From: an uncultured Gammaproteobacteria bacterium
Lineage (GTDB): Bacteria > Pseudomonadota > Gammaproteobacteria > UBA9214
Length of the DNA: 64,000 nucleotides
NCBI GenBank assembly: GCA_963753755.1
Contig: CAVWDM010000023.1
Coordinates: 8,190-72,189, forward strand
Direction of reading: 5' to 3'
Numbering within the stretch: the first letter of the stretch is position 1; each line of letters opens with the position of its first letter. Under the pieces are notes generated by a model, which saw only the letters and a program-made list of their open reading frames with translations, was not told where the DNA came from and made no database searches. Shown here piece after piece: positions 1,622 through 41,512 of the stretch. Made by a program: the position numbers and the translations under genes.

Positions 1622-1716
1622 TGTACCTAAGGACAATATACAGCCTGGGGCTTTATGTCATATCTTTTTACTTAGTGGCGTAACGATAATAGTAATCCTC
1701 CAATCAACGTCACTAG
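1622..1716. repeat. Dispersed module Z, copy 1
   Basis: TGTACCTAAGGACAATA (1622-1638) followed by TTATG-C-TAT, GTGGCG and GTCAC blocks also seen at 4287 and 40855. Confidence 0.8.
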
Positions 1717-1757
1717 TATGAACTGCATCAGGGAAGTAGCAGGGCATCTATCTTACG

Positions 1758-1781
1758 GCCACCCCTCGGGGTGGCTTTTTT
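1758..1781 (+). terminator. Rho-independent terminator; group IIC intron target
   Basis: GCCACCCC-TC-GGGGTGGC hairpin plus TTTTTT; the intron 5' end GTGCG follows at 1784. Confidence 0.9.
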
Positions 1782-1783
1782 AT

Positions 1784-2415
1784 GTGCGCCCAGCATGGGC
1801 GCGATTCTGGAGGTGGAAGTCCTCCCGTGAGTTGACCACAGCGAACGAAGTGAAGCGCAACTGCATGAGGGTGACCGATTGTGGGGAGGAAGCGTGGAGC
1901 GAAGCCGTGAGCCGATGGACAAGAACCGGATACGAGGCGGTGCCGAGCAGGGTGAGCGGGCATGAAATCGCGAAGCTCTTGTGGTCAAGGCTCAGGCGGC
2001 GTAAATCCGGCGGTTGTGCGGTGAAGGATCGCGTTCTTACCTGGGGAGATCTCGCCTTGTGCCTGAAAGGGCGACGGTGATGAACCGGAGCGAGAAGTCA
2101 GCAGAGGTCATAGTAGCTGCCAGCATGGAGCGAAGGGCCGAAGGAATAGGAGAGGGAGTCCTCTGGTTCTCGGATTTGGAATGTCTCAGATGTTCGCAGA
2201 AGCGAAGCTCGTCGTTATGGCTTGTAAGGTGAAGCCCGATAAGCTACGGCAGCGAGAAACCGAATCGGGCGGATCAGAAACAAGCAACCTCAGGAGGTGT
2301 GCCGGGATTGACTCAAGTGCGCCGACCTCAACTATTCCAACCGCCCGGTGCGGACCCGCATGCCGGGTGGTGTGGGAGGGGCTCGGTCAGGTTTCCTGAC
2401 CGCCCCTATCCCGAT
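1784..2415 (+). mobile_element. ORF-less group IIC intron
   Basis: 5' GTGCGCCCAGCATGGG; DV AACCGCCCGGTGCGGACCCGCATGCCGGGTGGTG with CGC triad; DVI ending CCCCTATCCCGAT; DIV only about 200 nt with no RT ORF. Confidence 0.9.
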
Positions 2416-4250
2416 GTGCGCCCAGCATGGGCGCGATTCTGGAGGTGGAAGTCCTCCCGTGAGTTGACCACAGCGAACGAAGTGAAGCGCAACTGCATGA
2501 GGGTGACCGATTGTGGGGAGGAAGCGTGGAGCGAAGCCGTGAGCCGATGGACAAGAACCGGATACGAGGCGGTGCCGAGCAGGGTGAGCGGGCATGAAAT
2601 CGCGAAGCTCTTGTGGTCAAGGCTCAGGCGGCGTAAATCCGGCGGTTGTGCGGTGAAGGATCGCGTTCTTACCTGGGGAGATCTCGCCTTGTGCCTGAAA
2701 GGGCGACGGTGATGAACCGGAGCGAGAAGTCAGCAGAGGTCATAGTAGCCGCAAGGCGAAGGACCGAACGAGAAGGAGAGTCGACTGTCATGTCGCTTGG
2801 CACTGCAAGGCATCAGAAGCCCGGGCAACCGGGGCGAACTGCCGAGGGGGAAGGTGAAGCCCGACCCGAAGCATTTCGTGATGAAGCAGGGCTGGCGCGG
2901 CATGAATCGCAAGGCTCGGGGCGAGCTGACCTGCTTGGGCAGGTGCTCGCGAGAGGGAACCTGGTCGTGGCATGGAAACGTGTCAAGGCCAATCGCGGCA
3001 GTGCGGGGGTAGATGGACTGACGATCCAGGCCACGGCCGAGTACCTCAAGACCCACTGGTCCCAGATCAAGGAGGCGCTGCAAAATGGCAGCTACCGGCC
3101 TCAGCCGGTGCGCCGCGTGCAGATACCCAAGTCTGGGGGCGGTATGAGGGAGCTGGGGATACCGACCGTGACGGATCGATTGATTCAGCAAGCCCTACTG
3201 CAAGTCCTGCAGCCATTGATTGATCCGACGTTTTCCAACCATAGCTATGGCTTCCGACCGGGCCGACGGGCGCATGACGCTGTGCTGACTGCGCAGCATT
3301 ATGTTCAAGAAGGTTATCGGGTGGTGGTCGATGTGGATCTGGAGAAGTTCTTCGACCGGGTCAATCACGACGTGCTCATGGATCGGCTGGCGAGACGTAT
3401 CGACGATAAGGCCGTACTGCGGCTGATACGGCGATATCTCAACGCGGGTGTCATGGATAACGGTGTGGTCATGGAGCGGTACGAGGGTACGCCGCAAGGC
3501 GGGCCACTTTCGCCGCTACTGGCCAATGTGTTGCTGGACGAGGTGGATCAGGAACTGGAGCGACGGGGCCATCGGTTCGTGCGCTACGCCGATGACTGCA
3601 ATGTGTATGTGCGCAGTCAGAAGGCCGGCGAGCGAGTCCTCAATGGTTTGCGCAAGCTCTACAACCGGCTCCATCTGAAGGTAAACGAAGCTAAAAGCGC
3701 GGTGGCCAGCGCCTATGGCCGTGCCTTTCTCGGCTACGAGTTGTGGTGTTCGGGCGGGGACATGGTCAAGCGGGGTGTTGCGCATAAGGCAACGGTCGCC
3801 TTCAAACGGCGCATCCGGCAGATTACCCGCCGGACGTGCGGGCGTAACCTGAGCGAGGTAGCGGAGGAACTGCGGCGATATGTGCCGGGCTGGAATGGTT
3901 ATTTCAAGCTGGCACAGACACCAAAGGTCTTTCGCGAACTGGACGAATGGTTGCGACACCGTCTGCGTGCCTTGCAGCTCAAACACTGGCGCCGCGGAAC
4001 GACGGTTTATCGGGAGTTACGGGCCTTGGGTGCGAGTTCGGATCAAGCGGCACGAGTGGCGGGTAATGCCCGCCGCTGGTGGCGTACCAGCTGCTTGCTG
4101 CTGAACTGGCTCATGCCTATTGCCTACTTCGATCGTCTCGGTGTTCCCCGACTCTCATGACCTCAACTTCTCGAACCGCCCGGTGCGGACCCGCATGCCG
4201 GGTGGTGTGGGAGGGGCTCGGTCAGGTATCCTGACCGCCCCTATCCCGAT
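2416..4250 (+). mobile_element. Full-length group IIC intron encoding RT/maturase
   Basis: Starts GTGCG directly after copy 1, ends CCCCTATCCCGAT at 4250, and has the RT ORF in DIV. Confidence 0.95.
2790..4160 (+). CDS. ltrA: Group II intron reverse transcriptase/maturase (class C, no endonuclease domain)
   Basis: Motifs GSAGVDG, RELGIPTVTDR, SYGFRPGR, DLEKFFD, GTPQGGPLSPLL, RYADD and a thumb/X domain (GWNGYF). ATG 2790 follows AAGGAGAG; the ORF-track start 2646 lies inside the ribozyme. Confidence 0.95.
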   Translation: MSLGTARHQKPGQPGRTAEGEGEARPEAFRDEAGLARHESQGSGRADLLGQVLARGNLVVAWKRVKANRGSAGVDGLTIQATAEYLKTHWSQIKEALQNGSYRPQPVRRVQIPKSGGGMRELGIPTVTDRLIQQALLQVLQPLIDPTFSNHSYGFRPGRRAHDAVLTAQHYVQEGYRVVVDVDLEKFFDRVNHDVLMDRLARRIDDKAVLRLIRRYLNAGVMDNGVVMERYEGTPQGGPLSPLLANVLLDEVDQELERRGHRFVRYADDCNVYVRSQKAGERVLNGLRKLYNRLHLKVNEAKSAVASAYGRAFLGYELWCSGGDMVKRGVAHKATVAFKRRIRQITRRTCGRNLSEVAEELRRYVPGWNGYFKLAQTPKVFRELDEWLRHRLRALQLKHWRRGTTVYRELRALGASSDQAARVAGNARRWWRTSCLLLNWLMPIAYFDRLGVPRLS

Positions 4251-4286
4251 TTGAATCTCAGTAGCGGGCCGGCAACCATGTCCGGT

Positions 4287-4370
4287 TGTACCTAAGGACA
4301 ATAGTCAGACCTGGCGTTATGCCTTATCGTGTAAAACAGGTGGCGCTCCACTTCTTCTACTCGTCACTAA
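4287..4370. repeat. Dispersed module Z, copy 2
   Basis: TGTACCTAAGGACAATA at 4287-4303 plus TTATGCCTTAT, GTGGCG and GTCACTA. Confidence 0.8.
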
Positions 4371-4432
4371 CACGCCCTGTGATTCACTCCCACAGTGCGT
4401 GTTTCTATGTCTGCAGCCTTCATGGCGTGGCG

Positions 4433-4467
4433 ACAGTATAAAGACCACATGCAGAAGGTTGATACAA
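4433..4467. repeat. Dispersed module Y, copy 2
   Basis: acagtataaagaccacatgcagaaggttgatacaa, similar to 1508-1542. Confidence 0.55.
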
Positions 4468-4742
4468 CTAGCACAAGTCGAGAGCGGTCGCTGATGTGGC
4501 TGTCCTCATACTGGCGGTGTTCCATCATTGCAGAATACAGCTCTTCATAGGGTGTCGTTTATTGTTCAATGCAGACCTTGATTACAACGATGTTTACTTG
4601 TTTAGATCTCCAGTGACAAGTGCGGGCAGCAAACTTCTGCATGGCCAGCTTGTCGCAGCCAGACAATGGTCTGGCACGTAGTGGTTACCGTGTATTTTTT
4701 AGCGGGCATAATATTATCCATGGTACCTTCTAGTTGGTTTTC

Positions 4743-4768
4743 AGGCGGCCTCAGGGTCGCCTTTTTTT
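4743..4768 (+). terminator. Rho-independent terminator
   Basis: AGGCGGCC-TCAG-GGTCGCCT followed by a T run. Confidence 0.75.
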
Positions 4769-4853
4769 ACGTGGAATGTACGTAGAACCTTAGAGCAATA
4801 GTATGACTTGCTGAAATTGGACATGATTGTAACCGTGCAACTTTCTGGAAAGC

Positions 4854-4991
4854 ATGATGGAAATACATATCTTGGCAATGCTCTGTATATCAGTAGGGAT
4901 AGTCTCAATACTGGGTGGACTGATCTGGTACTTGTCGATGCGGTCGTTGCCCTATGAACGGAATATTACTCATCAGAGACATCATTACTAA
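4854..4991 (+). CDS. Putative 45-aa single-pass membrane protein
   Basis: MMEIHILAMLCISVGIVSILGGLIWYLSMRSLPYERNITHQRHHY*; hydrophobic N-terminal half; below the ORF-track cutoff. Confidence 0.4.
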   Translation: MMEIHILAMLCISVGIVSILGGLIWYLSMRSLPYERNITHQRHHY

Positions 4992-5218
4992 CGGGCTAGA
5001 ACGCATCAGCGGGTAAAGACTCCCGCTTGGTATCGGTCAGTAGCTTGTGATAGCCCGGACAGCTGGCCAGCAAGTTCTTGTCAGCATGGCAGGACAGAAG
5101 GTCAGAATCAGTCATCGGGCTGTTCATAGTCTGGTTGCTCATCATCAGGTTCATTATTCCGCGACTGCCCAGGGTAGCGGTATGGGGCTTGCCGTATATT
5201 AAGTATCTATGTTCACAA

Positions 5219-5315
5219 ATAAAAAAGGCGGCTGGTTAGGGAGGGCAGCCGCCTTGATAGAGAACTTCAAAGAATCTCTCAACACACGTCTGGATAGGGG
5301 GGAGAAGACGTGTGA
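5219..5315 (-). ncRNA. Candidate sRNA with C/U-rich loops and intrinsic terminator
   Basis: Stem 5283-5291/5306-5314; terminator stem 5225-5234/5246-5255 plus U-tract; TAGTAT -10-like element at 5321-5326 on the minus strand. Confidence 0.45.
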
Positions 5316-5579
5316 GTGTCATACTAGGCGAAATGCAGTACGACTTCGATGTGACATAGTGTCGCACCGCAAAATACTGAAGACGTTCGCCTGAAGATTA
5401 TCAAATCGCCATATCACAGCTTCTCATCCGGCCGTTATGACGGTTCGCTGACTGATGTCGCACGGACGCAGCTCTTTTCCTCATTGTTACCAACACCGTA
5501 TGTATTTATGAGATACCGCTACACGTTTGGGCGGCTACTGCGATGCATGGTATTAGGCAAGTATTGTGTCATTAAAAAT

Positions 5580-5662
5580 TGTTACTGAATGGCGACAATA
5601 TATACCCATATTTTTCTGTTAGTTAGATAGTTCTAATCAGAGGCTGTCGGGAACAGGCGACA
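5580..5662 (+). promoter_or_regulatory. Two TGT-N12-ACA palindromes (putative enhancer-binding-protein sites)
   Basis: TGTTACTGAATGGCGACA 5580-5597 and TGTCGGGAACAGGCGACA 5645-5662, upstream of a sigma-54 promoter. Confidence 0.45.
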
Positions 5663-5748
5663 CATTCGCCTGTTCAGTAGGTTGTAATCTATTTGTAATT
5701 CCGCATTAGTTCCTGTTTTTCATTTCCTTAGGCTTGTACCGTTCTATA

Positions 5749-5763
5749 TGGCACGGCTATTGC
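5749..5763 (+). promoter_or_regulatory. Sigma-54 -24/-12 promoter
   Basis: TGGCACG-GCTA-TTGC matches TGGCACR-N4-TTGC. Confidence 0.8.
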
Positions 5764-5819
5764 CTGTGAACGTCGATACGCCCATTTCTAACGCCCAGCC
5801 CAGGAAGGAAACAGTTCCA

Positions 5820-7388
5820 ATGACAATCCATCAGTTTAATTCTACATCTCGATACTTGAAGTTCTTTATTTTATCTGTGTTTTTGTTTGCTGTGCACGGT
5901 GCGGCTGAGGCAAAAGATCTATGGGTGGATATCCTCTCACTGGGAGGTAGCTGTTCCGATGCGCGTAATCGAGACCAGGTTGGTCCTGCGACACCCTGGT
6001 GTAATCTGGGTCCGGCCGGTGAGCAGGCCCTTGCTGGCGATGTCGTCACGGTGAGAAGAGGTACCTACGCCAAACTTCACACCTGCCAAAAGTGTTACGA
6101 CACCTTTGTGTTTGAAGTCGTGAACAGTGGGACAAGTTCCGCCTGGATCAAATTTCGTTCATTACCTGGCGAGAAAGTGATCATATCGGGAAATGGCGGT
6201 GTTTCTCACGGCATTGGTGTCCTTCAAAACCGGAATTTTGGTGAGAAACCCCGATTTATCTCACTGCAAGGCTTCGAAGTACGTGACTTTGGACCCGAAG
6301 GCTTTTGTACCTGGGTGCGGTCCACCTCTGATGTTGTCCTGAAAGACCTCGACATCCATGGCTGCAGCCTGGGAGCGGTTGAGCTTCACGATACCGCGCG
6401 CGTTACCGTCGAAGATAGCCGTATACATGACAATCCAATGAGCGGATGGACCAGCGCAGTAGACCTCTACCGTTGCAGAGAAGGCCACATCATTCGACGA
6501 AACCTCATCTGGAACAATACGGATACTGATCCCGCCGAGAGCGAGGGCCATGGAATAATCATGGACGTATGTAAAGACTATGGTGGAAGTGCTGTCATAG
6601 AAAGCAACGTGATATGGGAGAATGAAGGGTGGTGCATAGTCGCAAACTGGGCAGACAACAGCATTGTGCGTAACAACACCTGCTGGATGAATGGCAACGG
6701 CCGCGCAGAGACGGGTGAAATTATCGTCGGCGACAACAATCATAGTATTCACAACAATATCACTGTACCCCGGTCAGGCCGACTCGGGCTTGCCATGAAG
6801 TACGGTGAAGGTAATACGTTTGAATACAATCTGGTACATGGAGGAAACTGGCTTTTGACATGGCCTGAGAACCTGTACCTGATGAACGAAGATCCAATGT
6901 TCGTCAATCCTGGTGCCGGGGACTTCCGCCTTAGGGCAGGCTCACCGGCTATTGATTCCGGTGACAACGCCAACGCGGCTTCCAGTGACGCTGACGGCAA
7001 TGCACGCCCACAGGATGGAAGTAACCTTGGCTACTCTATGGTAGATCTTGGTGCGTATGAATATACCCAGAGCGACTCCGGTAACGGTAATCCCGCATTG
7101 GACAGTGACAATGACGGTATTGCCGATAACCAGGACAATTGCACGCTGGTACCCAATAGTAGCCAGCTGGATACCAATGGGGATGGTTTCGGCAACAGCT
7201 GCGATCCGGACTTTAACCAGAACCTGGTTGTTGATCCGAATGATCATTCAGCCCTCAAGGCCGTCCTGGGGCAGTCCGGGCATCCAGACGAGGATATGAA
7301 TGGCAACGGTATCGTGGATCCGGAAGACTTCTCGATTCTCAAGTCCTTTCTGGGCCAGCCACCGGGGCCATCCTGCTGTGCACTATAG
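5820..7388 (+). CDS. Secreted parallel beta-helix protein with choice-of-anchor-Q-like region, thrombospondin type-3 repeats and dockerin-like tail
   Basis: Signal peptide (...VHGAAEA), beta-helix repeats, DPMFV..DFRL..SPAIDSG..DLGAYE, DSDNDGIADNQDNC...DGFGNSCD, DMNGNGIVD, and a QPPGPSCCAL end. Start moved to ATG 5820 (RBS AGGAAGG) because 5748 overlaps the promoter. Confidence 0.85.
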   Translation: MTIHQFNSTSRYLKFFILSVFLFAVHGAAEAKDLWVDILSLGGSCSDARNRDQVGPATPWCNLGPAGEQALAGDVVTVRRGTYAKLHTCQKCYDTFVFEVVNSGTSSAWIKFRSLPGEKVIISGNGGVSHGIGVLQNRNFGEKPRFISLQGFEVRDFGPEGFCTWVRSTSDVVLKDLDIHGCSLGAVELHDTARVTVEDSRIHDNPMSGWTSAVDLYRCREGHIIRRNLIWNNTDTDPAESEGHGIIMDVCKDYGGSAVIESNVIWENEGWCIVANWADNSIVRNNTCWMNGNGRAETGEIIVGDNNHSIHNNITVPRSGRLGLAMKYGEGNTFEYNLVHGGNWLLTWPENLYLMNEDPMFVNPGAGDFRLRAGSPAIDSGDNANAASSDADGNARPQDGSNLGYSMVDLGAYEYTQSDSGNGNPALDSDNDGIADNQDNCTLVPNSSQLDTNGDGFGNSCDPDFNQNLVVDPNDHSALKAVLGQSGHPDEDMNGNGIVDPEDFSILKSFLGQPPGPSCCAL

Positions 7389-7410
7389 ATAACATCATAA
7401 ATCATCAACA

Positions 7411-7440
7411 GCGGCGGCCTTCTGGCCGTCGTTTTTGTTT
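7411..7440 (+). terminator. Rho-independent terminator
   Basis: GCGGCGGCC-TTCT-GGCCGTCGT plus T-rich tail. Confidence 0.7.
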
Positions 7441-7688
7441 CAACGAATAATTGAAATAGACACTGGTTGATGTTCGATATGTAAACAAAAGGGAAAAAGA
7501 GCGAATCATCCGGAATAATGTCTGGGCAATTGCGGCAAAGTCTAATTGATAGGAAAACGGCAGTTAGCTGGAATAGCACTGAGTGTGAGTGCCGCTGATT
7601 CAACCAATTGGCGCAACAAATGATTCCTGATTGCTGAGCGGCCGATAAACAGTGATAACCGGTCAACGACTGACCTTTTGGTGTATAT

Positions 7689-7711
7689 AAAAATGGCTCC
7701 CGAAGGAGCCA
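7689..7711 (-). terminator. Terminator downstream of VPLPA-CTERM remnant
   Basis: TGGCTCC-CGAA-GGAGCCA with an A-tract on the left (U-tract on the minus strand). Confidence 0.7.
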
Positions 7712-7732
7712 CTGTATCGAGGCGGTAACCGC

Positions 7733-7924
7733 TTACGTTTTCTTTCGCCCAAGCATGCCAAGCAGGCCCATCAGTCCGGAGCCAAAGAGCCAGACGGATG
7801 CCGGGAGAGGAACCGCCTGAATCTGCATCCCGGCAAGTGCAGAATTCACCCCGAATAGCCCCCCGGCTATCGGAAAATCCTGGATTTGCAGTTGACCACT
7901 ACCATCACCAATGACTGCGAACTG
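7733..7924 (-). pseudogene. 5'-truncated VPLPA-CTERM protein
   Basis: Frame QFAVIGDGSG...QIQAVPLPASVWLFGSGLMGLLGMLGRKKT*; in-frame TGA at 7925-7927 directly upstream; no signal peptide. Confidence 0.8.
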
Positions 7925-8052
7925 TCATAGCGAGGGGGCGCAACGTTATCCTGGTGACGGCATATTGTTTTATACCTGCGAACAAGGTTGCGTAAATTTG
8001 TGCGTGCGGGTAGCCGTTCCGTTACCCGGTGGTACCCTGCTGTCCCAGTCTG

Positions 8053-8127
8053 CTAGTTTCCGCTGGCTAGAACGGCAGCAATAACTATGCTGGCAACGAT
8101 AATAAGAATCAGGACGCTGGTGCTCAT
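8053..8127 (-). CDS. Putative 24-aa hydrophobic peptide
   Basis: MSTSVLILIIVASIVIAAVLASGN*. Confidence 0.3.
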   Translation of the reverse strand: MSTSVLILIIVASIVIAAVLASGN

Positions 8128-8373
8128 GTCGTACCAGTCAGACGCGAATTTTTCATGACTCCCCTTGGTAATTATTTTTCCAGCCTGATAGATTCTTCTT
8201 GCTGGCTGTCTAACATACTTCTTTTGAGCCGATGATCTGTTGATGTGGGTCAACAAAATGGCAATCAGGGTTTGTTAAATCCAATCTGAAATGCCTGCCG
8301 CACCCTGCAGGCAACATTAGCCAGCCTGTCCCGATCGTTTCCATGCCGAGGGTGTGAGTATGTATGGCGAAGG

Positions 8374-8835
8374 TCAGGTGCGTTTGCGTGTGGGTACAAC
8401 AAGAACAGGACGTTCGGAGCCATGGATGATTCCCTCGCTAGTGCTACCAACAACCAGATGGTACATCGCGCCGCGTCCATGAGAACCTACAACAATCATA
8501 TCTACATCAAGTTCCGAGGCTTCCTTCAAAATCACTTCTACCGTTGCGCCTTGCACGAGAAGAGCCGTTGTATCCAGGTCTGACTTGCGCAATCGATCAG
8601 CAATCGTTTGAATCTGGTTGTGCTCATTGTGGAATTGTCTGGCAAGTGTGTCCCGCACCGGTTCAGGGTCCGCATTTAACCCAACTTGTGGATTATCAAA
8701 TCCTACGAAGTCTGGATCAGGCTCTGCGACATGCAGCAGCCAAACTTGTGCTTGAAGTGCTTTGGCAATATCTTCAACCTTTTTCACAATCATTTCTGTG
8801 GATTCAGAAAGGTCAATGCCCACGAGAATCTTCAT
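8374..8835 (-). CDS. Universal stress protein (UspA family)
   Basis: KILVGID, LLHV, DMIVVGSHGRG...GSTSE...PVLVVP. Confidence 0.93.
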   Translation of the reverse strand: MKILVGIDLSESTEMIVKKVEDIAKALQAQVWLLHVAEPDPDFVGFDNPQVGLNADPEPVRDTLARQFHNEHNQIQTIADRLRKSDLDTTALLVQGATVEVILKEASELDVDMIVVGSHGRGAMYHLVVGSTSEGIIHGSERPVLVVPTRKRT

Positions 8836-9340: not shown

Positions 9341-9370
9341 AAAAGAACCCCGCAATTGCGGGGTTCTTTT
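9341..9370. terminator. Bidirectional terminator (perfect 30-bp palindrome)
   Basis: AAAAGAACCCCGCAATTGCGGGGTTCTTTT downstream of the cold-shock gene. Confidence 0.85.
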
Positions 9371-9391
9371 GTGACAGGTTGTAACTGAACG

Positions 9392-10497: not shown

Positions 10498-10514
10498 CTG
10501 CCTGCTGGCGACGG

Positions 10515-11744
<1,230 letters not shown>

Positions 11745-33003: not shown

Positions 33004-34785
33004 ATGACAAGCATGAAAGATTCAATTATCAGTCTAGAAGACTTGCTTCGACAGCTTGTGCTTACCGTGCTGGTGGCCGCGATACTGGTGTCCTGTGCCA
33101 TCTCGGGTGACAAAAGCCAGTTGCAGACAGTTACGGCAATAGAGGATGAACGGCCGCCCGCCGCGGGTGTAGAGGTTGCTCAGAATACAGCACTGCCGCA
33201 ACAGACGCTAACAGATGACATGATGTTCGATATTCTGCTGGCCGAGATTGCCGGTCAGCGTGGTGAAATGAATGTCTCCGTCCCTCACTACCTGCAGGCT
33301 GCACTGCTGGCCCAGGATCCGCGGGTTGCGGAGCGTGCCGTACAGATTGCCTCCTATGCCAAGGAATACCAGGCCGCCGAGCGTGCCGCGCGCCGCTGGG
33401 TCGAGCTTGATCCGGACAGTGTTGAGGCACGCAAGGCCCTGATTGCACTGGCGCTGCACAATGGTGACCGGCAAGAGGTCATTACCCAGCTGGATTACCT
33501 GCTGGCGATTTCAGATGACCCGGAGGCCGGTTACAGCCTGGCGACCACCATCCTTGCACATGAAGCTGACAAGGGTGCCGCACTGGATGCGATGGAGAAG
33601 CTGGTCGCCCATAACCCGGAAAATCCCTATGCCTGGATGGCATTGAGCCGCATTGCGGTGGCTGCGGAGCAAATGGACAAGGCGCTGCAGGCGGTCAACA
33701 AGGCACTGGCGGTGAGTCCGGACTCGGATTCGGCGATCCTGCTAAAGGCCCAGATACTGGTCAGGATGGATCAAAAGGAAAAGGCCAGCCGGCTCCTGGC
33801 CGAAGCGGTTGCCAGGCATCCCGAGAACGCCAACCTGCATTTTGCCTACGGTCGTATGTTGCTGGACGCAGAGGACCTGGAGGGTTCCCGTGAGCAATTT
33901 GCCACGGTCGTCAAACTGGAACCCAACAATCCGGATGGTCTCTATTCACTCGCGCTGCTGGAGCTGGAGACCGGGCAGTACAAGGCCGGTGAAAAACACT
34001 TGCTGCGGCTGATCGAAATCGATGAGGGTGTGCAAAATGCCTATTACTATCTGGGTTATGCCAAGCTCAAGCAGGATGATGATAAGGCTGCGCTGGTCTG
34101 GTACCGCAGGGTTGAATCGGGCGATTACTGGAGTCAGGCGCAGTTGCGGATCGCTGAGATTCTCGTCAGACAGGATGATGTCGATGCCATGCAGAGACAT
34201 ATGCGGATACTGCGGCAAAAGGACCCTGCTCAAAGTGTCACCTATTACCTACTAGAAGGACAGGTTTTATCGGATGCAAAACTTTACAGGGAAGCCTTTG
34301 AACTCTATGCCAGGGCGCTGCAGGCCAGTCCGGACAACGTCGACTTGCTGTATGCGCATTCACTGGCCGCCGAGCAGTTGGGAAAACTCGAAATTGCTGA
34401 AAGAGATATGCGCCGGATTCTCGAAATGGATCCCGACAATGTGCGTACACTGAACGCGCTCGGTTATACGCTGGCAGACCAGACCGATCGTTATGAAGAG
34501 GCGCTGGTGTACATCAACAGGGCCTACGCACAGGAACCGGATGATCCGGCCATTATTGACAGTCTTGGCTGGGTGCACTATCGCCTCGGCAACCTCGATG
34601 AGGCGCAAGACCTCCTGCAGCGGGCCTGGAATATGACCCAGGACAGCGAGATCGGTGCTCACCTCGGCGAGGTCATGTGGGTGCAGGGTGATCACGAGGG
34701 TGCACGTAAAATCTGGGAAGCCTCGCGTCAGGCCTCGCCCGATAATCCGGTTTTACTGGAAGTGATCAATCGTTACAACCCGTGA
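33004..34785 (+). CDS. Tetratricopeptide repeat lipoprotein
   Basis: LVSC lipobox-like motif, TPRs, LNALGYTLAD, DSLGWV; conserved position between hemA and lolB. Confidence 0.88.
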   Translation: MTSMKDSIISLEDLLRQLVLTVLVAAILVSCAISGDKSQLQTVTAIEDERPPAAGVEVAQNTALPQQTLTDDMMFDILLAEIAGQRGEMNVSVPHYLQAALLAQDPRVAERAVQIASYAKEYQAAERAARRWVELDPDSVEARKALIALALHNGDRQEVITQLDYLLAISDDPEAGYSLATTILAHEADKGAALDAMEKLVAHNPENPYAWMALSRIAVAAEQMDKALQAVNKALAVSPDSDSAILLKAQILVRMDQKEKASRLLAEAVARHPENANLHFAYGRMLLDAEDLEGSREQFATVVKLEPNNPDGLYSLALLELETGQYKAGEKHLLRLIEIDEGVQNAYYYLGYAKLKQDDDKAALVWYRRVESGDYWSQAQLRIAEILVRQDDVDAMQRHMRILRQKDPAQSVTYYLLEGQVLSDAKLYREAFELYARALQASPDNVDLLYAHSLAAEQLGKLEIAERDMRRILEMDPDNVRTLNALGYTLADQTDRYEEALVYINRAYAQEPDDPAIIDSLGWVHYRLGNLDEAQDLLQRAWNMTQDSEIGAHLGEVMWVQGDHEGARKIWEASRQASPDNPVLLEVINRYNP

Positions 34786-35363
34786 AGCATGTTAGCGGGT
34801 TGTTGCTGATCCTGTTGCTGAGCGGTTGTGCAGCAACACCTCTCCTCAAAAGCAGTCGTTCCGCAGCGGAATTCAGTGACTGGCAGTTGCAGGGTCGTAT
34901 TGCCCTGCGCCACGGCGATCAAGGCTGGCATGCAAGTTTACTTTGGCAGCAACAGGCAGACGCGTACCAGTTGAAGGTATCCGGTCCGCTGGGGCAGGGT
35001 GGTTTCCAGCTTGCCGGTGATGAAACGGGTGTCGTGCTGGTAGATGCCGGGGGGAATTCATCGTTTGCCCATGATGGTGATGCCCTGCTGTTGCAGGCTA
35101 CCGGCTGGCAGTTGCCGGTGATGGGATTGCGCTACTGGGTGCGGGGGTTGCCCGAGCCGGATGCCAAGGCTACCCGGATAGTTGATGAATCGGGCCTGTT
35201 GAGCCGTCTGGAGCAATCGGGGTGGGTTATTCATTACCAGAATTATCAGTTAGTTGAAGGCGCTGCTGTGCCCTCGAAACTGCAGCTGGCACGGGATGAT
35301 ATCAGTGTGCGGCTGGTCATTAATCAGTGGCAACTGGGCCCGGCTGCAGATACGTTGCCATGA
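34782..35363 (+). CDS. lolB: Outer-membrane lipoprotein insertase LolB
   Basis: LSGC lipobox, W...GRI, GPLG, LRYWVRG. Confidence 0.92.
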   Translation: MKHVSGLLLILLLSGCAATPLLKSSRSAAEFSDWQLQGRIALRHGDQGWHASLLWQQQADAYQLKVSGPLGQGGFQLAGDETGVVLVDAGGNSSFAHDGDALLLQATGWQLPVMGLRYWVRGLPEPDAKATRIVDESGLLSRLEQSGWVIHYQNYQLVEGAAVPSKLQLARDDISVRLVINQWQLGPAADTLP

Positions 35364-36220
35364 CCCTGGACTTGATCCCGACCACAGCCAGCGGTCCGTG
35401 GCCGGCTCCGGCCAAGCTTAACCTGTTGTTGCACGTGCTCGGGCAGCGTGCTGATGGGTACCATGAACTGCAGACGGTGTTTCAATTCCTGACTGCCAGC
35501 GACTGGATGTATTTCGATGTCCAGCAGCAGAGCGACATACAGCTTGTCGGAGGACCGGCTGGCCTAGCGGCAAACGCAGACCTTTGCGTGCGAGCGGCTA
35601 CACTGCTGCAGCAAGCCACCGGCTGCCGGGCAGGGGTCACAATTTATAACGACAAACGCCTGCCCGTGGGGGGCGGTCTGGGCGGGGGTAGCTCCGATGC
35701 GGCGACCACGCTGCTGGTTCTGAATCGGCTCTGGGGGCTGGGATTGCCGCCTGACGAGCTGGCACGGCTGGGACTCTCTCTGGGTGCCGATGTGCCGGTG
35801 TTTGTCCATGGCCGGGCGGCCTGGGCTGAGGGGGTTGGTGAAAGACTTACCCCCGTGACCCCACAGGAAGCATGGTATTTTGTGCTGATTCCGCCGGTAA
35901 GCGTATCAACTGCCGCAATTTTTTCCGATCCGGGTTTGACACGGGACACGCCGCGAACGAAAATACCCGACCTTCTTCCGGGCGCGGGTCATAATGACTG
36001 CGAGGACGTGGTTCGTCGCAGGTATCCGGAAGTGGCCGCGGCGCTCGACTGGCTGAATGATTTTTCTGCGGCGCGGCTGACCGGCACCGGTGCCTGTGTC
36101 TTTGCCGCGTTCGATACACAGGCTGATGCACAGGCAGTCGCTGCGCAGCTGCCGGCCAGCTGGTCTGGCCTTGTGGCACGGGGTACCAATCGCTCTCCCT
36201 TGCTGACCGCAATGGAGTGA
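35360..36220 (+). CDS. ispE: 4-diphosphocytidyl-2-C-methyl-D-erythritol kinase
   Basis: PAPAKLNL, GGGLGGGSS, LGADVP, LTGTG. Confidence 0.96.
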   Translation: MTLDLIPTTASGPWPAPAKLNLLLHVLGQRADGYHELQTVFQFLTASDWMYFDVQQQSDIQLVGGPAGLAANADLCVRAATLLQQATGCRAGVTIYNDKRLPVGGGLGGGSSDAATTLLVLNRLWGLGLPPDELARLGLSLGADVPVFVHGRAAWAEGVGERLTPVTPQEAWYFVLIPPVSVSTAAIFSDPGLTRDTPRTKIPDLLPGAGHNDCEDVVRRRYPEVAAALDWLNDFSAARLTGTGACVFAAFDTQADAQAVAAQLPASWSGLVARGTNRSPLLTAME

Positions 36221-36262
36221 GCGGCTATCCGTCCTGCGCAGGTGTGTCACTAACAGATTAAT

Positions 36263-36337
36263 TGGGACGTCGCCAAGTGGTAAGGCCCGGGGTTTTGATC
36301 CCCGTATGCGCAGGTTCGAATCCTGCCGTCCCAGCCA
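36263..36337 (+). tRNA. tRNA-Gln (TTG)
   Basis: Cloverleaf, anticodon loop TTTTGAT, GTTCGAATC, 3' CCA. Confidence 0.96.
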
Positions 36338-36394
36338 AGCATGAACATCGCACAGCGGTGAGTACTGACGCAAGGCGCGGCAGGTAAATATGCA

Positions 36395-36493
36395 TTCCCT
36401 CTCCCTCCGGGAGAGGGGCAGGGAAAGGGGATACGCCCCAGGCAGTTAACTGTCCTGATCCTCGTTCCCCAACCCTCTCGGTACGAGAGGGAG
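36395..36493. repeat. REP/BoxC-like GC-rich palindromic element
   Basis: CCCTCTCCCTCCGGGAGAGGGG...CCCCAACCCTCTCGGTACGAGAGGGAG inverted pair. Confidence 0.6.
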
Positions 36494-36518
36494 TACAACA
36501 ATTGACAGCAGACACATT

Positions 36519-37493
36519 ATGAACGCTTTGCACAGCTCTGATTCTGACAGCCAGATAATGGTGTTCAGCGGGAATGCCAATCCGAAGCTGGCGGAGGCGG
36601 TTGTTGAACATTTGCAATTGAGTCTGGGCGCTGCCAGCGTCGGCAGTTTCAGCGACGGTGAAGTGCAGGTGGAGATTGAAGAGAACGTTCGTGGCAAGGA
36701 TGTTTTCGTGATACAGCCGACGTGTGCGCCGACCAACGATAACCTGATGGAATTGCTGGTGATGATTGATGCCCTGCGGCGTTCATCCTCCCGCCGGATC
36801 ACTGCGGTGATGCCGTATTTCGGTTATGCGCGCCAGGATCGCCGGCCACGTTCAATACGTGTTCCGATCACGGCCAAGGTGGTTGCACAGATGATCGGCA
36901 ATGTTAAGGCTGACCGTGTGTTGACCGTCGATTTGCATGCTGATCAGATACAGGGTTTTTTTGATATACCGGTTGATAATGTGTACGCATCGCCGATCCT
37001 TCTGGGCGATGTCTGGAAACAGAAATATCCGGATATGGTGGTGGTGTCACCGGACGTCGGCGGTGTCGTCAGGGCGAGGGCACTGGCAAAACGCCTTGAT
37101 GATGCCGATCTGGCGATTATTGATAAACGCCGGCCGCGCCCGAATGAAGCGCGGGTGATGAATATTATCGGTGAGGTTGAAGGGCGTACCTGCGTGCTGG
37201 TCGATGACCTGGTCGACACTGCGGGCACCTTGTGTCTGGCTGCGCAGGCACTGAAGGAACACGGTGCGGTTCGCGTGGTCGCCTACTGCACGCATCCGGT
37301 ATTGTCCGGTTCGGCAGTCGACAATATCGAGGCGTCAGTGCTGGACGAACTGGTGGTAACCGATACCATCCCGCTACAGGAAAATGCACAGGCCTGTAGC
37401 AAGATAAGGCAGTTGAGTATTGCAACCATGCTTGCAGAAACCATGCGCCGTATCAGTATGGAAGAGTCGGTGAGCTCACTGTATATGGATTAG
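36519..37493 (+). CDS. prs: Ribose-phosphate pyrophosphokinase
   Basis: [36 protein letters not shown]. Confidence 0.97.
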
Positions 37494-37537
37494 GATCTGA
37501 TTCGTGGTGCTGTTGTTCGCGCAACCGTGCTGCATCC

Positions 37538-37563
37538 AGTCTTCCCTGGTCGCGGGGAAGACT
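37538..37563 (+). promoter_or_regulatory. Putative rplY (bL25) leader hairpin
   Basis: AGTCTTCCC-TGGTCGCG-GGGAAGACT about 40 nt upstream of rplY; resembles, from memory, the proteobacterial L25 leader. Confidence 0.6.
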
Positions 37564-37604
37564 TTATTCGCACCACTAGGTGCATATTCATCTGGAGAAG
37601 TAAC

Positions 37605-38276
37605 ATGGCTATGAGTTTTGAATTGAATGCGGAGCCACGCAGTGACACAGGTAAGGGTGCGAGCCGCCGCCTGCGTCGTGCGGGTAAGGTTCCGGCCATC
37701 ATCTATGGTGGAAACAAGGATCCCGAGGCACTGACACTGTCGCATAACGAGGTGCTGCGTAACCTTGAGCATGAGGCATTTTACTCGCACATCCTGACAG
37801 TCAAGAGCGGCGGTAGCGAAACGCAGGCTATCCTGCGCGATTTGCAGCGTCATCCCAGCAAGGTGATCATCATGCACATGGACCTGCAGCGCGTCAGTGC
37901 AACTGAAACGCTGAGGACAAATGTACCAATACACATTATTGGTGAAGATGTCGCCCCGGGGGTGAAAGAGGGTGGCCTGGTCTCGCACGACCTGACGGAT
38001 GTCGAGGTCGAGTGTTATCCCCAGGATCTGCCTGAATATATTGAGGTGGACATCTCTGCACTTGAAGTGGGTGATTCCATTCACCTCTCAGCCCTGAAGG
38101 TGCCTGAAGGCGTTACACTGACAGAGCTGGAACGTGGCGAGGATCACGACGCCTCTGTTGTCTCCATCCACGCCAAGCGTATTGTTGAAGAGATCGAGGA
38201 AGAAGCGCCTGCTGCAGAAACGGGTGAAACCGGTGAAGAAGCGAAGGGCGAGGGTGAAGGCGAAGACGAAGACTGA
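37605..38276 (+). CDS. rplY: 50S ribosomal protein bL25/Ctc
   Basis: [31 protein letters not shown]; acidic tail. Confidence 0.96.
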
Positions 38277-38279
38277 CCG

Positions 38280-38858
38280 TTGGCTGCTATACAGCTCGTT
38301 GCCGGGCTGGGTAATCCTGGAGCAAAGTACGAACAGACCCGGCATAACGCCGGGTTCTGGTTTGTGGATGAAGTTGCCCGCCAGGTAAATGCCGGTTTCA
38401 AGTCCGAAACCAAATTCAAGAGCGAGGTTGCGCGCTGCTTGATTGCGGGGCATGACTGTCGTCTGCAGAAACCCATGGATTTTATGAACCGCAGCGGACT
38501 GCCGGTGGCGTCACTGGCAGCCTTTTACCAGATTCCGCGCAGCAGCATTCTCATCGTGCATGACGATCTGGATCTGCCACCGGGCACGGTGAAGCTGAAA
38601 AGAGGGGGTGGTCACGGCGGACATAACGGTCTGCGTGACCTGATCCCCCATCTTGGGGGCAATGATTTCCTGCGCTTGCGTATCGGCATAGGACATCCTG
38701 GCCATCGTGATGATGTCGTGGGTTATGTGCTGAAGAATGCTTCCCGCGACGAGCGTGCCGTCATTGACCAGGCAATAGACGACGCAGTGAAGGTATTGCC
38801 GGATATTATTTCAGGCTATTTCGACAAGGCCATGAAAGAGTTGCATACGGCGAAATAA
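38280..38858 (+). CDS. pth: Peptidyl-tRNA hydrolase
   Basis: GLGNPG, TRHNAGF, HDDLD, GGHNGL. Confidence 0.97.
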   Translation: MAAIQLVAGLGNPGAKYEQTRHNAGFWFVDEVARQVNAGFKSETKFKSEVARCLIAGHDCRLQKPMDFMNRSGLPVASLAAFYQIPRSSILIVHDDLDLPPGTVKLKRGGGHGGHNGLRDLIPHLGGNDFLRLRIGIGHPGHRDDVVGYVLKNASRDERAVIDQAIDDAVKVLPDIISGYFDKAMKELHTAK

Positions 38859-38933
38859 CCGCCATGTGTGATACTCGTTGATGGGCGCGCTGTACCTGGT
38901 CCATCCTGGAATGCATTAGAGAACTGGATAACT

Positions 38934-40025
38934 ATGAGCGTCAAATGCGGCATTGTAGGTCTTCCCAATGTGGGCAAGTCCACCCTGTTCAACGCCCTGA
39001 CCGAGGCGGGTATTCAGGCTGAAAATTATCCCTTCTGTACCATTGATCCCAATGTCGGCATTGTGCCGGTACCGGACCCGCGTCTTGACCGGCTGGCTGA
39101 GATCGTCAAGCCGCAGAAGATCATCAGCACTACCATGGAGTTTGTCGACATCGCCGGACTGGTTGCCGGCGCCTCCAGGGGTGAAGGGCTGGGCAACAAG
39201 TTCCTGGCCAATATTCGCGAGACCGATGCCATCTGCATGGTGGTGCGCTGCTTTGATGATGACAACGTTGTACACGTGTCCGGCAGTGTAGACCCGATGC
39301 GTGATATTGATGTCATCAATACGGAACTCGCACTGGCAGACCTTGAGACTGTCGAGAAAGGCATCAACCGCGCTGGCAAGATTGCCAAGAGTGGTGACAA
39401 GGAGGCCAGGGCAAAGCTGGCCATTCTTGAAGCCGCCCGTGACCATCTGGATGCCGGCGGGCTGATCACTGGCATGGCGCTTGATGATGACCAGCAGGCA
39501 CTGCTTTATGACTTGCATTTGTTGACAGCCAAACCGGTGATGTACGTTGCCAACGTCAGCGAGAATGGCTTCGAGAATAATCCATACCTGGATGCGGTGT
39601 GCCGCCGGTCCGAGGAAGAGGGCGCCGAGACGGTAGCCGTTTGTGCCGCCATCGAGGCGGAACTGGTGGAACTCGACCGCCAGGAGCGCAAGGAGTATCT
39701 CGACGAGCTGGGATTTGACGAGCCCGGGTTGAACCGCGTAATTCGCGCCGGGTACAAGCTTCTCAAACTGCAGACCTATTTCACCGCCGGGGTAAAAGAG
39801 GTCCGCGCCTGGACCACGCACGTCGGCGCTACTGCGCCCAAGGCGGCGGGTGAAATTCATACCGATTTCGAGAAGGGTTTTATCCGCGCCGAGGTCGTTG
39901 CCTACGACGATTTTGTCCGCTACGAGGGCGAACACGGTGCAAAGGATGCCGGAAAACTGCGTTTGGAGGGCAAGGACTACGTCGTACAGGATGGTGATGT
40001 TATGCATTTCCGCTTTAACGTTTAA
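38934..40025 (+). CDS. ychF: Ribosome-binding ATPase YchF
   Basis: [35 protein letters not shown]. Confidence 0.97.
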
Positions 40026-40100
40026 CGTCCAGGCGCACCCGCAAGAGAGGCAGCGAGACTTGTCCAGGGCTACTGTTTTCAGGTACCCTATCGCACCCTT

Positions 40101-40177
40101 GGCTACGTAGCTCAGCCGGTTAGAGCACAGCATTCATAATGCTGGGGTCGGTGGTTCAAGTCCACCCGTAGCTACCA
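40101..40177 (+). tRNA. tRNA-Met (CAT, elongator type)
   Basis: GGCTACG/CGTAGCT acceptor stem, anticodon loop TTCATAA, 3' CCA. Confidence 0.95.
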
Positions 40178-40675
40178 ATTAATCAATAAGTTAGGTTAGC
40201 CGGCGTAATTCTTAATCCTGACTAAAGTGTGCATTAAGTGCATAGGGCAATATAAAAACGGGCTATTGCAGCCCGCTTCCTATATTGCCACGCTCGATTT
40301 TCTATTGAAGGTAACTGCGGTAGCACTCATTTAAGAATTTTTGCAACTGATTGCCATCGATACAACTTGAATCCTCATTACCTGAAAACGATCGCTAATC
40401 CGCATTAAATCGACTTTCCGAGTGTATTAGGAAAACGCGAGCATTTTTAGTAGCAGAATTTATCTTGACCGTGTTCGTCTTCTTCGCCTGTAATGTAAGG
40501 GGGTACAGGTATTCCAAACAAGCTCATAAGCGGCCTCATATGATCTTCAATGAAAGCATCCCATAGGCTGGCCGGGTCCCACCATGTAGCCGCCCCGGCA
40601 TCATGAATGATGCGTCTGTATCGTGTTCGCATGCGTGAATCTCTGCAGTTGATCAAGGTGGGTTATTCGCTCAAA

Positions 40676-40756
40676 TGAAAACAGCGGCCATCGTTTGAAC
40701 AAAAGCCGCCGTTCAGTTATCTAGGCTGCACAGCAGGATGGCCCCGACGGCTCATC
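40676..40756 (-). pseudogene. 3' tail and terminator of a PPGPSCC-family gene
   Basis: Minus strand gagccgtcggggccatcctgctgtgcagcctagataac (EPSGPSCCAA*) matches the end of 5820..7388 (cagccaccggggccatcctgctgtgcactatagataac), followed by a similar hairpin. Confidence 0.65.
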
Positions 40757-40826
40757 AGGTAACACTGTATGTATCCGCTCCCGAGGTAGACACCTGTCCA
40801 TGAACTGTCATAGCGGGAGAGGGCTC
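40741..40826. repeat. Dispersed module X, copy 2
   Basis: CGAGGTAGACACCTGTC at 40782-40798. Confidence 0.7.
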
Positions 40827-40837
40827 GACCTTTTCTA

Positions 40838-41512
40838 ATGGCAGATTTGCTGTCTGTACCTAAGGACAATACCGATTGGCGGTTATGCCATATATTGTTA
40901 ATCAGTGGCGTAACTATTCTCCCTAACAGTTCAGTGAGTCACCAATCAAGTTCAACCTGGGATGAAGGGATTGTTGGTGATTTCAACGCAGGGCAACTTT
41001 TTACGCTGACCGAGGGTGGTAACTGGTTTATTGGGTCACAGGCATGGGCAGTTGACCCAGTTGATGGGTTTCGCTTCACCGTTCCAAATGGTTACAGGGC
41101 GACAATTGATATTACTTATAGATACCTGAACCTGGGCGATGCAGAGGGAACAGCATGGATTTGGGATTTGTTCTCATTGGCCGTTGAAGAATCATGTATA
41201 CCTGATGCATCTAGGCCTTACAGCTGTTTTGCGCCTGCAGGCAGCGCGCTCATAACGAGAAAAATATTACAAACTCCGGGAGATTTCATAACTCCAGGTG
41301 ACTGGGATTATGTTCCTATTGATGGTTATATGCTGAATGCAGCAACCTACCAACTGGCTGATAACCTTGCATTCACAAACAGTCAGGATTCGGTACTTTC
41401 GTATTCATTTAGTTTACACGTCGTTCCAGTACCTGTTCCCGCCTCAATCTGGCTCTTCGCCTCTGGTATGCTGGGGCTAATCGGTATGGCACGACGCAAG
41501 AAAGCGGCTTAA
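40838..41512 (+). CDS. VPLPA/PEP-CTERM protein lacking a signal peptide (probably 5'-truncated)
   Basis: C-terminus VPVPVPASIWLFASGMLGLIGMARRKKAA; the first ~35 codons read through repeat module Z. Confidence 0.75.
   Translation: MADLLSVPKDNTDWRLCHILLISGVTILPNSSVSHQSSSTWDEGIVGDFNAGQLFTLTEGGNWFIGSQAWAVDPVDGFRFTVPNGYRATIDITYRYLNLGDAEGTAWIWDLFSLAVEESCIPDASRPYSCFAPAGSALITRKILQTPGDFITPGDWDYVPIDGYMLNAATYQLADNLAFTNSQDSVLSYSFSLHVVPVPVPASIWLFASGMLGLIGMARRKKAA
40855..40945. repeat. Dispersed module Z, copy 3
   Basis: TGTACCTAAGGACAATA 40855-40871, TTATGCCATAT, GTGGCGTAAC, GTCACCA. Confidence 0.8.

Follow-up and report, generated by a model that had tools for sequence, protein, structure and literature searches.

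A repeated intergenic module of an uncultured gammaproteobacterial order, probably a box-controlled unit for a small regulatory RNA

A stretch of 64,000 nucleotides (nt) from an uncultured gammaproteobacterium, referred to below as the window (positions 8190–72189 of contig C23 of the source genome, G000), contains several copies of an intergenic element, module Z, that an initial annotation had noticed without recognising it. Module Z is probably a small transcription unit, with about twenty copies in the genome, made up of a regulator box, a weak promoter and a regulatory RNA of about 70 bases. It has a constant architecture with fixed spacings, is conserved throughout a bacterial order, shows compensatory changes in its RNA part and is associated with a particular set of genes; it would constitute a new small RNA (sRNA) family and a regulon. 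From these observations we infer that the unit is transcribed and from which position, that its RNA acts in trans on Shine-Dalgarno (SD) sequences, and which type of regulator controls it.

According to this model, the box, GTACC-N3-GGACAATA-NN-C, would be the binding site of a transcription activator and would directly abut a weak sigma-70-type promoter. Transcription would start 1–3 nt before GUGGCG and yield an sRNA of about 60–85 nt with two hairpins. Hairpin 1, GUGRC(R)/(Y)GYCAC, would expose a loop with, usually, CUCC or CCUCC, and hairpin 2 would be a GC-rich rho-independent terminator, its loop often CUCC as well. The RNA would act in trans, its C/U-rich loops pairing with ribosome-binding sites and repressing translation. 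At some loci a protein gene would have the hairpin as its 5' leader, with or without the terminator. The RNAs would belong to a cell-surface or matrix regulon together with PEP-CTERM genes, a family-2 glycosyltransferase (GT2) gene and genes for small arginine-rich (Arg-rich) proteins and a two-helix membrane protein.

Each of the three main copies in the window opens with the 17-mer TGTACCTAAGGACAATA, found exactly at 1622–1638, 4287–4303 and 40855–40871, always on the plus strand. A sequence scan with a shuffle control thus confirmed the initial annotation on this point: the expected count in the window is 0.05, at least three matches occurred in none of 100 shuffles, and no further match was present in the window at up to three mismatches. 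The ordered elements that had been described downstream of the 17-mer are also present in all three copies, namely TTATGTCATAT, GTGGCG (1675–1680) and CGTCAC (1708–1713) in copy 1, TTATGCCTTAT, GTGGCG (4340–4345) and CGTCAC (4362–4367) in copy 2, and TTATGCCATAT, GTGGCG (40905–40910) and GTCAC (40938–40942) in copy 3, all on the plus strand.

In copy 1 the box, a predicted activator site at about −50 to −34, is followed by TACA, which makes a poor −35 element, and 22 nt after the box by the −10-like hexamer TATCTT (1661–1666). Sequence, terminator scan and fold z-score support a predicted sRNA of about 110 nt on the plus strand (1673–1783), in which GUGGCG (1675–1680) pairs with CGUCAC (1708–1713) around a loop containing CCUCC; a divergent middle part, a terminator hairpin (1757–1776) and a T-run to 1783 complete it. 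Copy 2 has the −10-like TATCGT (4325–4330) 21 nt after the box and a predicted plus-strand sRNA of 69 nt (4338–4406) consisting of hairpin 1 (4340–4367) and a terminator (4369–4403) with its U-run. This terminator is an inverted repeat with 13-nt arms (4369–4381 and 4391–4403), followed by TTTCT. Copy 3, with TATTGT (40893–40898) again 21 nt after the box, is of the leader type (40903–41512, plus strand): hairpin 1 (GUGGCG 40905–40910, GUCAC 40938–40942) encloses the loop CUCCC, a terminator is absent, and the unit runs into a PEP-CTERM/VPLPA-CTERM open reading frame (ORF) ending at 41512. A fourth, degenerate box, CATACCTTGGGACAATA, lies on the minus strand (45578–45562), followed by TACA and, 21 nt after the box, by TATGCT (45540–45535), so that the whole element spans 45535–45578. 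Both this fourth box and the continuation of the module into a terminator hairpin (1757–1783 in copy 1, 4369–4406 in copy 2) had been overlooked in the initial annotation.

The box and its promoter geometry recur throughout the genome. With two mismatches allowed, G000 has 19 occurrences of the 17-mer, compared with three for the reversed control, an abundance that had likewise escaped the initial annotation. About 28 boxes can be counted, 12–16 of them with an RNA. An alignment of 16 genomic copies shows the order 17-mer, TACA(G), spacer, TATNNT, about 9 nt, GTGGC(G/A), variable loop, (C/T)G(T/C)CAC, TAACAC, GC-rich hairpin and T-run. When a relaxed box was used, TAnnnT was found 19–23 nt downstream in 34 of 171 cases; its reversed control gave 4 of 158. 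Of the G000 boxes, 25 have no more than two mismatches, and in 21 of these TAnnnT follows at 21 nt, in three at 22 nt and in one at 20 nt. In relatives of the same genus TAnnnT still stands at +21 in 26 of 28 rows, as read by eye, while the 21 intervening bases are unrelated (e.g. GTTATGCCA has become CGCCCGCC); the C at box position 20 is kept in all rows read. Wherever present, the GTGRC arm of hairpin 1 begins 8–10 nt after the −10 hexamer, a position that would suit the start of a transcript. With TAnnnT as the −10 element, the box would come to lie between about −50 and −34, and TAnnCA would be a poor −35. The fixed box–TAnnnT spacing, the position of the hairpin and the terminal stem-loop with its T-run all suggest a short transcript with a promoter in front of it.

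The bulged palindrome that had been described in the 17-mer is present as written, but its centre, TAA, varies freely in relatives (AAA, TCA, TGA, TAT, TTG), and across them only TGTACC...GGACA is conserved; within the consensus GTACC-N3-GGACAATA-NN-C it is GGACAATA that is kept best. Because the 'loop' of a hairpin would consist of a single base and the centre changes without compensation in relatives, the 17-mer reads as a DNA site and not as an RNA hairpin. The suggestion of a protein-binding array thus caught one half of the module, since the box keeps a fixed distance to TAnnnT and also precedes protein genes. The suggestion of a structured RNA caught the other half: it holds from GTGGCG onward, where hairpin and terminator show compensatory changes, but not for the 17-mer. 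The argument that variable spacers speak against coding was sound, the length of loop 1 ranging from 14 to 43 nt.

Both helices were predicted by RNAalifold for 11 G000 copies (alignment A2). For a MAFFT alignment of 27 non-identical RNAs from G000 and its relatives (A3), in which four rows are misaligned, RNAalifold returned the terminator only, and the two-helix structure used in the covariation test, including helix 1, was therefore written by hand. With this structure 92.5% of the cells in A3 hold standard pairs, versus 32–48% when the partners are slid by 1–3 columns. None of 500 shuffles attained the observed covariation score or percentage of paired cells. Changes on both sides occur in nine of the 15 pairs, and in the terminator helix seven of nine pairs covary. 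The fourth pair of helix 1 is G-C in 11 cases, G-U in eight and A-U in three; the many G-U pairs fit only an RNA of the plus strand, the other strand giving A-C. Fold z-scores were −5.79 for a copy on contig C6, −4.42 for window copy 2 and −3.05 for copy 1. The make-up of an intrinsic terminator, a GC-rich stem-loop followed by a U-run, is present, and the terminator scan called it in copy 1 (1757–1776 plus T-run).

One of the 4-mers CUCC, CCUC or UCCC is present in loop 1 of 23 of 32 RNAs, compared with 9.8 expected from shuffles, and a CUCC-like 4-mer occurs in the 3' part, mostly in the terminator loop, of 15 of the 32. CCUCC is the core of the anti-SD sequence of 16S rRNA; pairing of such loops with ribosome-binding sites would follow from this identity. 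Loop 1 often carries AAUAAUAA, and at least three consecutive A-R-N triplets, such as AAUAAUAAUAA, occur in ten loops. A-R-N tracts and a U-tail are typical contacts of Hfq.

R1, a covariance model built on the RNA section of the module, gave 13 matches in G000 at a cut-off of E ≤ 0.01, 12 of them preceded by a box and the thirteenth without one; window copy 2 (G000:C23:12527-12595) matched with 51.1 bits (E 1.9e-9). In the family, which makes up the whole order, R1 found 40 of 54 genomes and all six genera, with 1–6 copies per relative and the largest number in G000. Outside it, 2 of 145 genomes from other gammaproteobacterial families gave weak matches. The exact box GTACC-N3-GGACAATA is present in 39 of the 54 family genomes, at 79 places versus 11 for the reversed control, and the box unit is found at equivalent places across the whole order. 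According to their record titles, the metagenome-assembled genomes (MAGs) of the order come from sediments and salt marshes. A search for the pattern box + CA + N17 + TAnnnT over about 185,000 species genomes returned 48 loci, which by title and sequence are about 30 gammaproteobacterial MAGs of this group, five likely chance matches and 13 loci of Rhodoferax, Curvibacter and related Burkholderiales. For one locus that carries two RNA copies, metatranscriptome runs contained as much as 23% of its words.

The Rfam query that the initial annotation had recommended returned no family at gathering score for the module, the matches in the window being pieces of group II introns, a cspA element and two tRNAs; with permissive searches nothing on the plus strand of the module reached threshold either. 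A 30-bit match to 'Betaproteobacteria toxic sRNA' between two of the copies was rejected, as it consisted of a minus-strand terminator only.

Several results weigh against the transcription-unit model. The window copies are not uniform, copies 1 and 3 being atypical members of the RNA family: copy 1 does not reach the R1 cut-off, and copy 3, which has no terminator, folds no better than its shuffles (z-score +0.13). The terminator scan called copy 1 only and passed over copy 2 despite its 13-nt arms. Loop 1 lacks a CUCC-like motif in 9 of the 32 RNAs. The shuffle control of the covariation test in A3 leaves the kinship among the sequences in place. In none of the window copies was the proposed promoter picked up by a sigma-70 consensus scan (−35 TTGACA, −10 TATAAT, spacing 16–18 nt, at least 9 of 12 matches), as matches of the type TATACA-N17-TATCGT score 8 of 12 against the threshold of 9; in copy 1 it called two promoter-like sites on the opposite strand instead, one of them with ACAATA, reverse-complemented, serving as −10. 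A promoter that escapes the consensus scan fits an activator-dependent promoter, yet the −35 element TAnnCA is poor and the sigma factor uncertain. Contigs assembled from four runs cover 1–800 and 1083–1483 of locus L010 (the protein gene upstream and a portion of the spacer) and not the RNAs, although contigs and standard libraries miss RNAs of about 70 nt, which makes this coverage uninformative either way. Finally, the candidate regulator described below is absent at E ≤ 1e-25 from some genomes with boxes, among them G052, which is 91% complete and has five boxes, and G044.

Hairpin and terminator could also be nothing but a cis-acting leader or attenuator, with a terminator under the control of a protein or ligand, the stand-alone copies being leaders that lost their gene and have no function in trans. 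Such an arrangement does occur: in the relatives L025, L033, L039, L041 and L043 and on contig C19 of G000, box, promoter and hairpin stand directly before a small Arg-rich ORF, mostly with the terminator in between, and window copy 3 and the copy on C13 are leaders of PEP-CTERM genes. As a general explanation it is nevertheless unlikely. The majority of G000 copies have no ORF behind them, are arranged in tandem (e.g. 167 nt apart on C16) and retain promoter, hairpin and terminator intact; the stand-alone type is kept in all six genera, and C/U-rich loops are enriched in it, whereas the leaders carry (AAU)n loops. The two roles can coexist. A mobile or recombination element, whether an integration site or a sequence resembling attC or a miniature inverted-repeat transposable element (MITE), that spreads together with the accessory regions and whose internal motifs serve a recombinase or transposase, is considerably less probable still. 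It would account for the high copy number in G000 (12–13 model matches versus 0–6 in relatives), and the spacer GTTATGCCATAT and the post-terminator motif ATGTCCGCTGCATTCAT, shared by the G000 copies and missing in distant relatives, do indicate recent duplication or gene conversion in this genome; two of 19 loci also adjoin transposase genes (IstB, DDE_3). However, terminal inverted repeats common to the three window copies are lacking, those found being internal hairpins or unrelated 8–10-mers that differ between copies, none of 28 neighbouring ORFs is an integrase, and target-site duplications were not seen, in the absence of a formal test. An element of the MITE, attC or repetitive extragenic palindromic (REP) type would be marked by inverted repeats at its ends or a palindrome, even if imperfect, across the whole unit, by duplications on its flanks and by a recombinase nearby, and the module does not show this combination. 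What is conserved is instead the constant spacing of box and −10, together with a hairpin and terminator with compensatory changes, and in another proteobacterial class ordinary genes are driven by this box. The recombination or integration site proposed in the initial annotation gained no support.

The two remaining alternatives accept a promoter and place it differently, and to both we give hardly any credence. One equates the 17-mer with motif 1 of the PEP-CTERM upstream element, an enhancer for PrsR, and GTGGCG with the −24 element of a sigma-54 promoter. Haft et al. (2006) describe, in the part of the paper available to us, a 17-nt motif upstream of PEP-CTERM genes with a −24/−12 motif 32–92 nt later, their motif 1 ending in TTTACA and followed by a spacer of about 63 nt before the sigma-54 motif (PMC1569441). 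In our copies the 17-mer stands about 36 nt before GTGGCG or GTGGCA, which resembles TGGCA, and some boxes do precede PEP-CTERM genes. On the other hand, a sigma-54-like match with GG-N10-GC (pattern TGGCAC-N5-TTGC, at most two other mismatches) was found within 150 nt downstream of none of 28 boxes and in 92 of 2000 random windows. Where GTGGC has become GTGAC, its pairing partner has changed to match, as befits a helix and not the GG of a −24 element, and the 17-mer ends in ACAATA(TACA) where the motif of Haft et al. has TTTACA, a comparison made without the published logo. The other alternative, no more credible, reads ACAATA on the opposite strand as the −10 element TATTGT of a promoter firing leftwards from the module. 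In copy 1 the scan does find ATGACA-17-TATTGT on the minus strand (1661 to 1633), and GGACAATA, the best conserved part of the box, would be explained. Yet a leftward promoter is called in only one of the three window copies, its −35 part TTATGYC varies in relatives in which the TAnnnT at +21 is kept, and in tandem arrays its transcript would run antisense through the terminator of the unit before it. Protein genes, moreover, lie 74–140 nt downstream of the box on the plus strand and not upstream of it.

In G000 the same box and −10 geometry precedes three VPLPA/PEP-CTERM proteins (window 40838–41512, L008 and L017), a family-2 glycosyltransferase (L011) and four Arg-rich ORFs of about 56 amino acids (aa), all four without Pfam or NCBIfam match. 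The window PEP-CTERM ORF (40838–41512) matches TIGR03370 with 27.2 bits (cut-off 25.35) and TIGR02595 with 17.5 bits (cut-off 16). This ORF shows no signal peptide after the predicted transcription start, and the box lies inside its sole long frame, downstream of the start; the ORF may have decayed or lost its 5' end, and the relative L146 was uninformative as to the N-terminus of the protein. Nine of the 23 PEP-CTERM genes of G000 lie within 4 kb of one of the 28 boxes, compared with 1.1 expected, and none of 5000 random placements reached nine. Neighbours within 1.5 kb of the modules include FG-GAP, dockerin/TSP3, beta-helix, fn3, Sel1 and secretin proteins. The idea that the module marks surface-protein islands is thus upheld by the three boxes directly before PEP-CTERM genes and by the nine nearby genes, but most PEP-CTERM genes have no box in their vicinity; only three of the approximately 28 boxes stand before such genes and most copies stand before small RNAs. 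The link to surface proteins is one of regulon rather than of integration site.

Behind the fourth box of the window, a gene for a 106-aa membrane protein with two helices (45179–45499, minus strand) is 40% identical to the box-driven gene of L042 and has no NCBIfam match. Homologues are box-driven in many relatives, and box control may be more widespread for this gene than for any other in the order. The family, proteins of about 105–120 aa with two hydrophobic helices, the C-terminal motif (R/Q)GC..WQ.(D/E)L..YQ and no NCBIfam match, was seen at L042, L044, L045, L048, L086, L109 and L112 in addition to the window. The Arg-rich proteins (L009:1593-1775; L016:1564-1731; L015:1246-1416 and L019:1131-1298, the last two on the minus strand) form a conserved multi-copy family across the order with three RR/DRR motifs and a PFKDS.G core; its consensus in alignment A4 is M.N.R....RR....MP.VPFKDS.G.TI.ECRRK..DRRI..IQAEW.D. 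In several genomes these genes lie directly after a leader composed of box, hairpin and terminator or directly before an RNA copy. A search of the ESM atlas with them returned clusters annotated as 'hypothetical protein' only. In relatives (L083:452-536, L115:450-536 and L104:313-393, the last on the minus strand) the box drives a different RNA of about 85 nt that resembles the Rfam family sRNA-Xcc1 (RF02221) with 35.7–38.2 bits, the gathering score being 53. In G000 the GT2 gene behind a box (C6:221030, minus strand) has a leader that may represent a shorter version of this RNA.

A candidate for the regulator comes from the Comamonadaceae-type loci (L088, L091, L095, L099, L103, L108, L111, L117, L118, L123, L124, L127 and L129; also L153). 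In all 13 the box lies 14–70 nt after the stop codon of a regulator gene of the GerE/LuxR type, and a gene for an adhesin with a LapA-type retention module starts 74–81 nt after the box; the variable and the conserved box positions are those of the gammaproteobacteria. Since the regulator gene adjoins the box in 13 of 13 loci, a LuxR-type protein is the best candidate for the box-binding activator, judged only from synteny in another class. In the genomes of the Rhodoferax/Curvibacter type this regulator gene follows a gene for an HlyD-type component of a type I secretion system (T1SS). A homologue in G000 (C1:115099-115767) shows 40% identity along part of its sequence. Homologues are present in 46 of the 54 family genomes, in imperfect co-occurrence with the box, and this distribution adds no support to that given by the synteny. 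On contig C1 of G000 (115099–117000, L156) the homologue adjoins ORFs that by eye resemble degenerate GGDEF and EAL domains, which hints at a possible link to cyclic di-GMP (c-di-GMP).

Two tandem group II introns on the plus strand separate copies 1 and 2 and are not part of the module. Identified by Rfam matches and by their ends, they consist of an ORF-less intron of 632 nt (1784–2415) and one of 1835 nt (2416–4250) that encodes a reverse transcriptase (RT)/maturase with RVT_1 and GIIM domains. Both begin with GTGCGCCCAG, at 1784 and 2416, and share the 3' end ...CCCGAT / ...CCCCTATCCCGAT. The insertion lies right after the copy 1 terminator GGCCACCCCTCGGGGTGGCTTTTTTAT; the divergent 3' half of copy 1 ends in a different terminator, targeted by the introns. 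Without them the 17-mer starts of copies 1 and 2 would be 198 nt apart, in line with the earlier estimate of about 200 base pairs (bp). The pattern is that expected of class-C-like intron homing to the terminators of these RNA genes. Several RNA copies, both in G000 (C16, around 40590) and in a distant MAG (L107), are closely followed by a recurrent terminator motif, GGCCACCC(C/T)TCGGGGTGGCTTTTTT; positions 1757–1783 of the window, at the point of intron insertion, are an instance of it. The introns may carry this motif along with them, or they may insert preferentially at it. Directly upstream of box copy 1 there is a hairpin with a GUCCUCCUCCUCUU loop (1567–1612), and a stretch of about 30 nt before copy 1 (1527–1542) recurs after copy 2 (4452–4467) and nowhere else in the genome; the local array at copies 1 and 2 may once have held more units.

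A wider reading, which we put forward only tentatively and think more apt to be wrong than right, takes all of these elements together as an undescribed matrix or biofilm regulon common to the gammaproteobacterial order and the Comamonadaceae. One activator, possibly of the LuxR type, would switch on adhesins or PEP-CTERM proteins and, in the gammaproteobacteria, also the anti-SD sRNAs and the 'DRR' proteins of about 56 aa. RNA and small protein together would have arisen as a convergent equivalent of cuckoo RNA and CcaF1 (DUF1127) in the Alphaproteobacteria. The small protein would bind the hairpin, in maturation or anti-termination, and the RNAs would reprogramme translation when cells turn sessile.

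Should the proposed unit be confirmed, an unannotated sRNA family absent from Rfam exists in 1–13 copies per genome across an uncultured order. Its box would tie these RNAs to PEP-CTERM proteins and exopolysaccharide glycosyltransferases and, in another class, to LapA-type adhesins, and would offer a testable handle on the regulation of PEP-CTERM genes outside the sigma-54/PrsR scheme. It would also be a second, independent case of anti-SD sibling sRNAs paired with a small Arg-rich protein, so far a matter of the Alphaproteobacteria. For annotation, the module would account for a class of conserved 'empty' intergenic repeats. A literature search on PEP-CTERM and small RNAs found nothing relevant by title or abstract.

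Short RNAs whose C-rich loops pair with G-rich ribosome-binding sites are known from Xanthomonas (sX13) and from Firmicutes (RsaE/RoxS), where they are single- or few-copy. The RNAs described here show no sequence or model similarity to these in Rfam searches and differ from them in host and promoter. With the PEP-CTERM site of Haft et al. (PrsR/PrsK/PrsT), as far as that description was accessible, the box has in common that both are conserved 17-nt motifs in long intergenic regions before PEP-CTERM genes of Proteobacteria and are interpreted as the place where a dedicated activator binds. They differ in sequence, in the 21-nt distance to a TAnnnT −10 and in the −24/−12 element, which is found at 0 of 28 boxes. 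LuxR/GerE-type biofilm regulators such as VpsT and CsgD offer a parallel to the Comamonadaceae-type loci, where a GerE gene adjoins the box and a LapA-type adhesin gene; VpsT of Vibrio cholerae, according to the portion of the source consulted, binds at biofilm and adhesin-export loci (PMC8754643). Its T-box, given there as WR[CG]YWWR[GC]YW, was compared with GTACC-N3-GGACAATA and does not fit it; binding of the box by a LuxR-type protein is a candidate interaction.

The closest analogue is the cuckoo RNA of the Alphaproteobacteria (alpha-r14/RSs0680/CcsR1-4/NfeR1; Rfam ar14, RF02344). In the sections seen, cuckoo RNAs are described from Rhizobiales and Rhodobacterales as multi-copy, often tandem RNAs of two to four adjacent hairpins with C/U-rich, anti-SD-like loops, each loop with the motif CCUCCUCCC (PMC4615179), and as often adjoining a gene for a small Arg-rich, RNA-binding protein with DUF1127 (OG1/ccaF1; PMC4615179, PMC8034643). 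Our literature search combining CCUCCUCCC with sRNA led to Alphaproteobacteria only. The ar14 model does not reach its gathering score of 58.8 bits, the scores being 35.2 for L093, 29.8 for L128 and 13.8 for a G000 copy, with no match at threshold in the window, and none of 17 neighbouring small Arg-rich proteins matches DUF1127 at E ≤ 10. Unlike the cuckoo RNAs, the RNAs of module Z have mostly CUCC or CCUCC rather than the 9-mer, which is complete in a few loops only (e.g. C6:192157 and C16:47940). Their second hairpin is a terminator, their host is a gammaproteobacterium, and they would be made from a box-dependent promoter of their own instead of being cut from a 3' untranslated region (UTR). 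What the two share are sibling RNAs, C/U-rich loops on stems that vary by compensatory changes, and an Arg-rich neighbour, a resemblance that is probably convergent.

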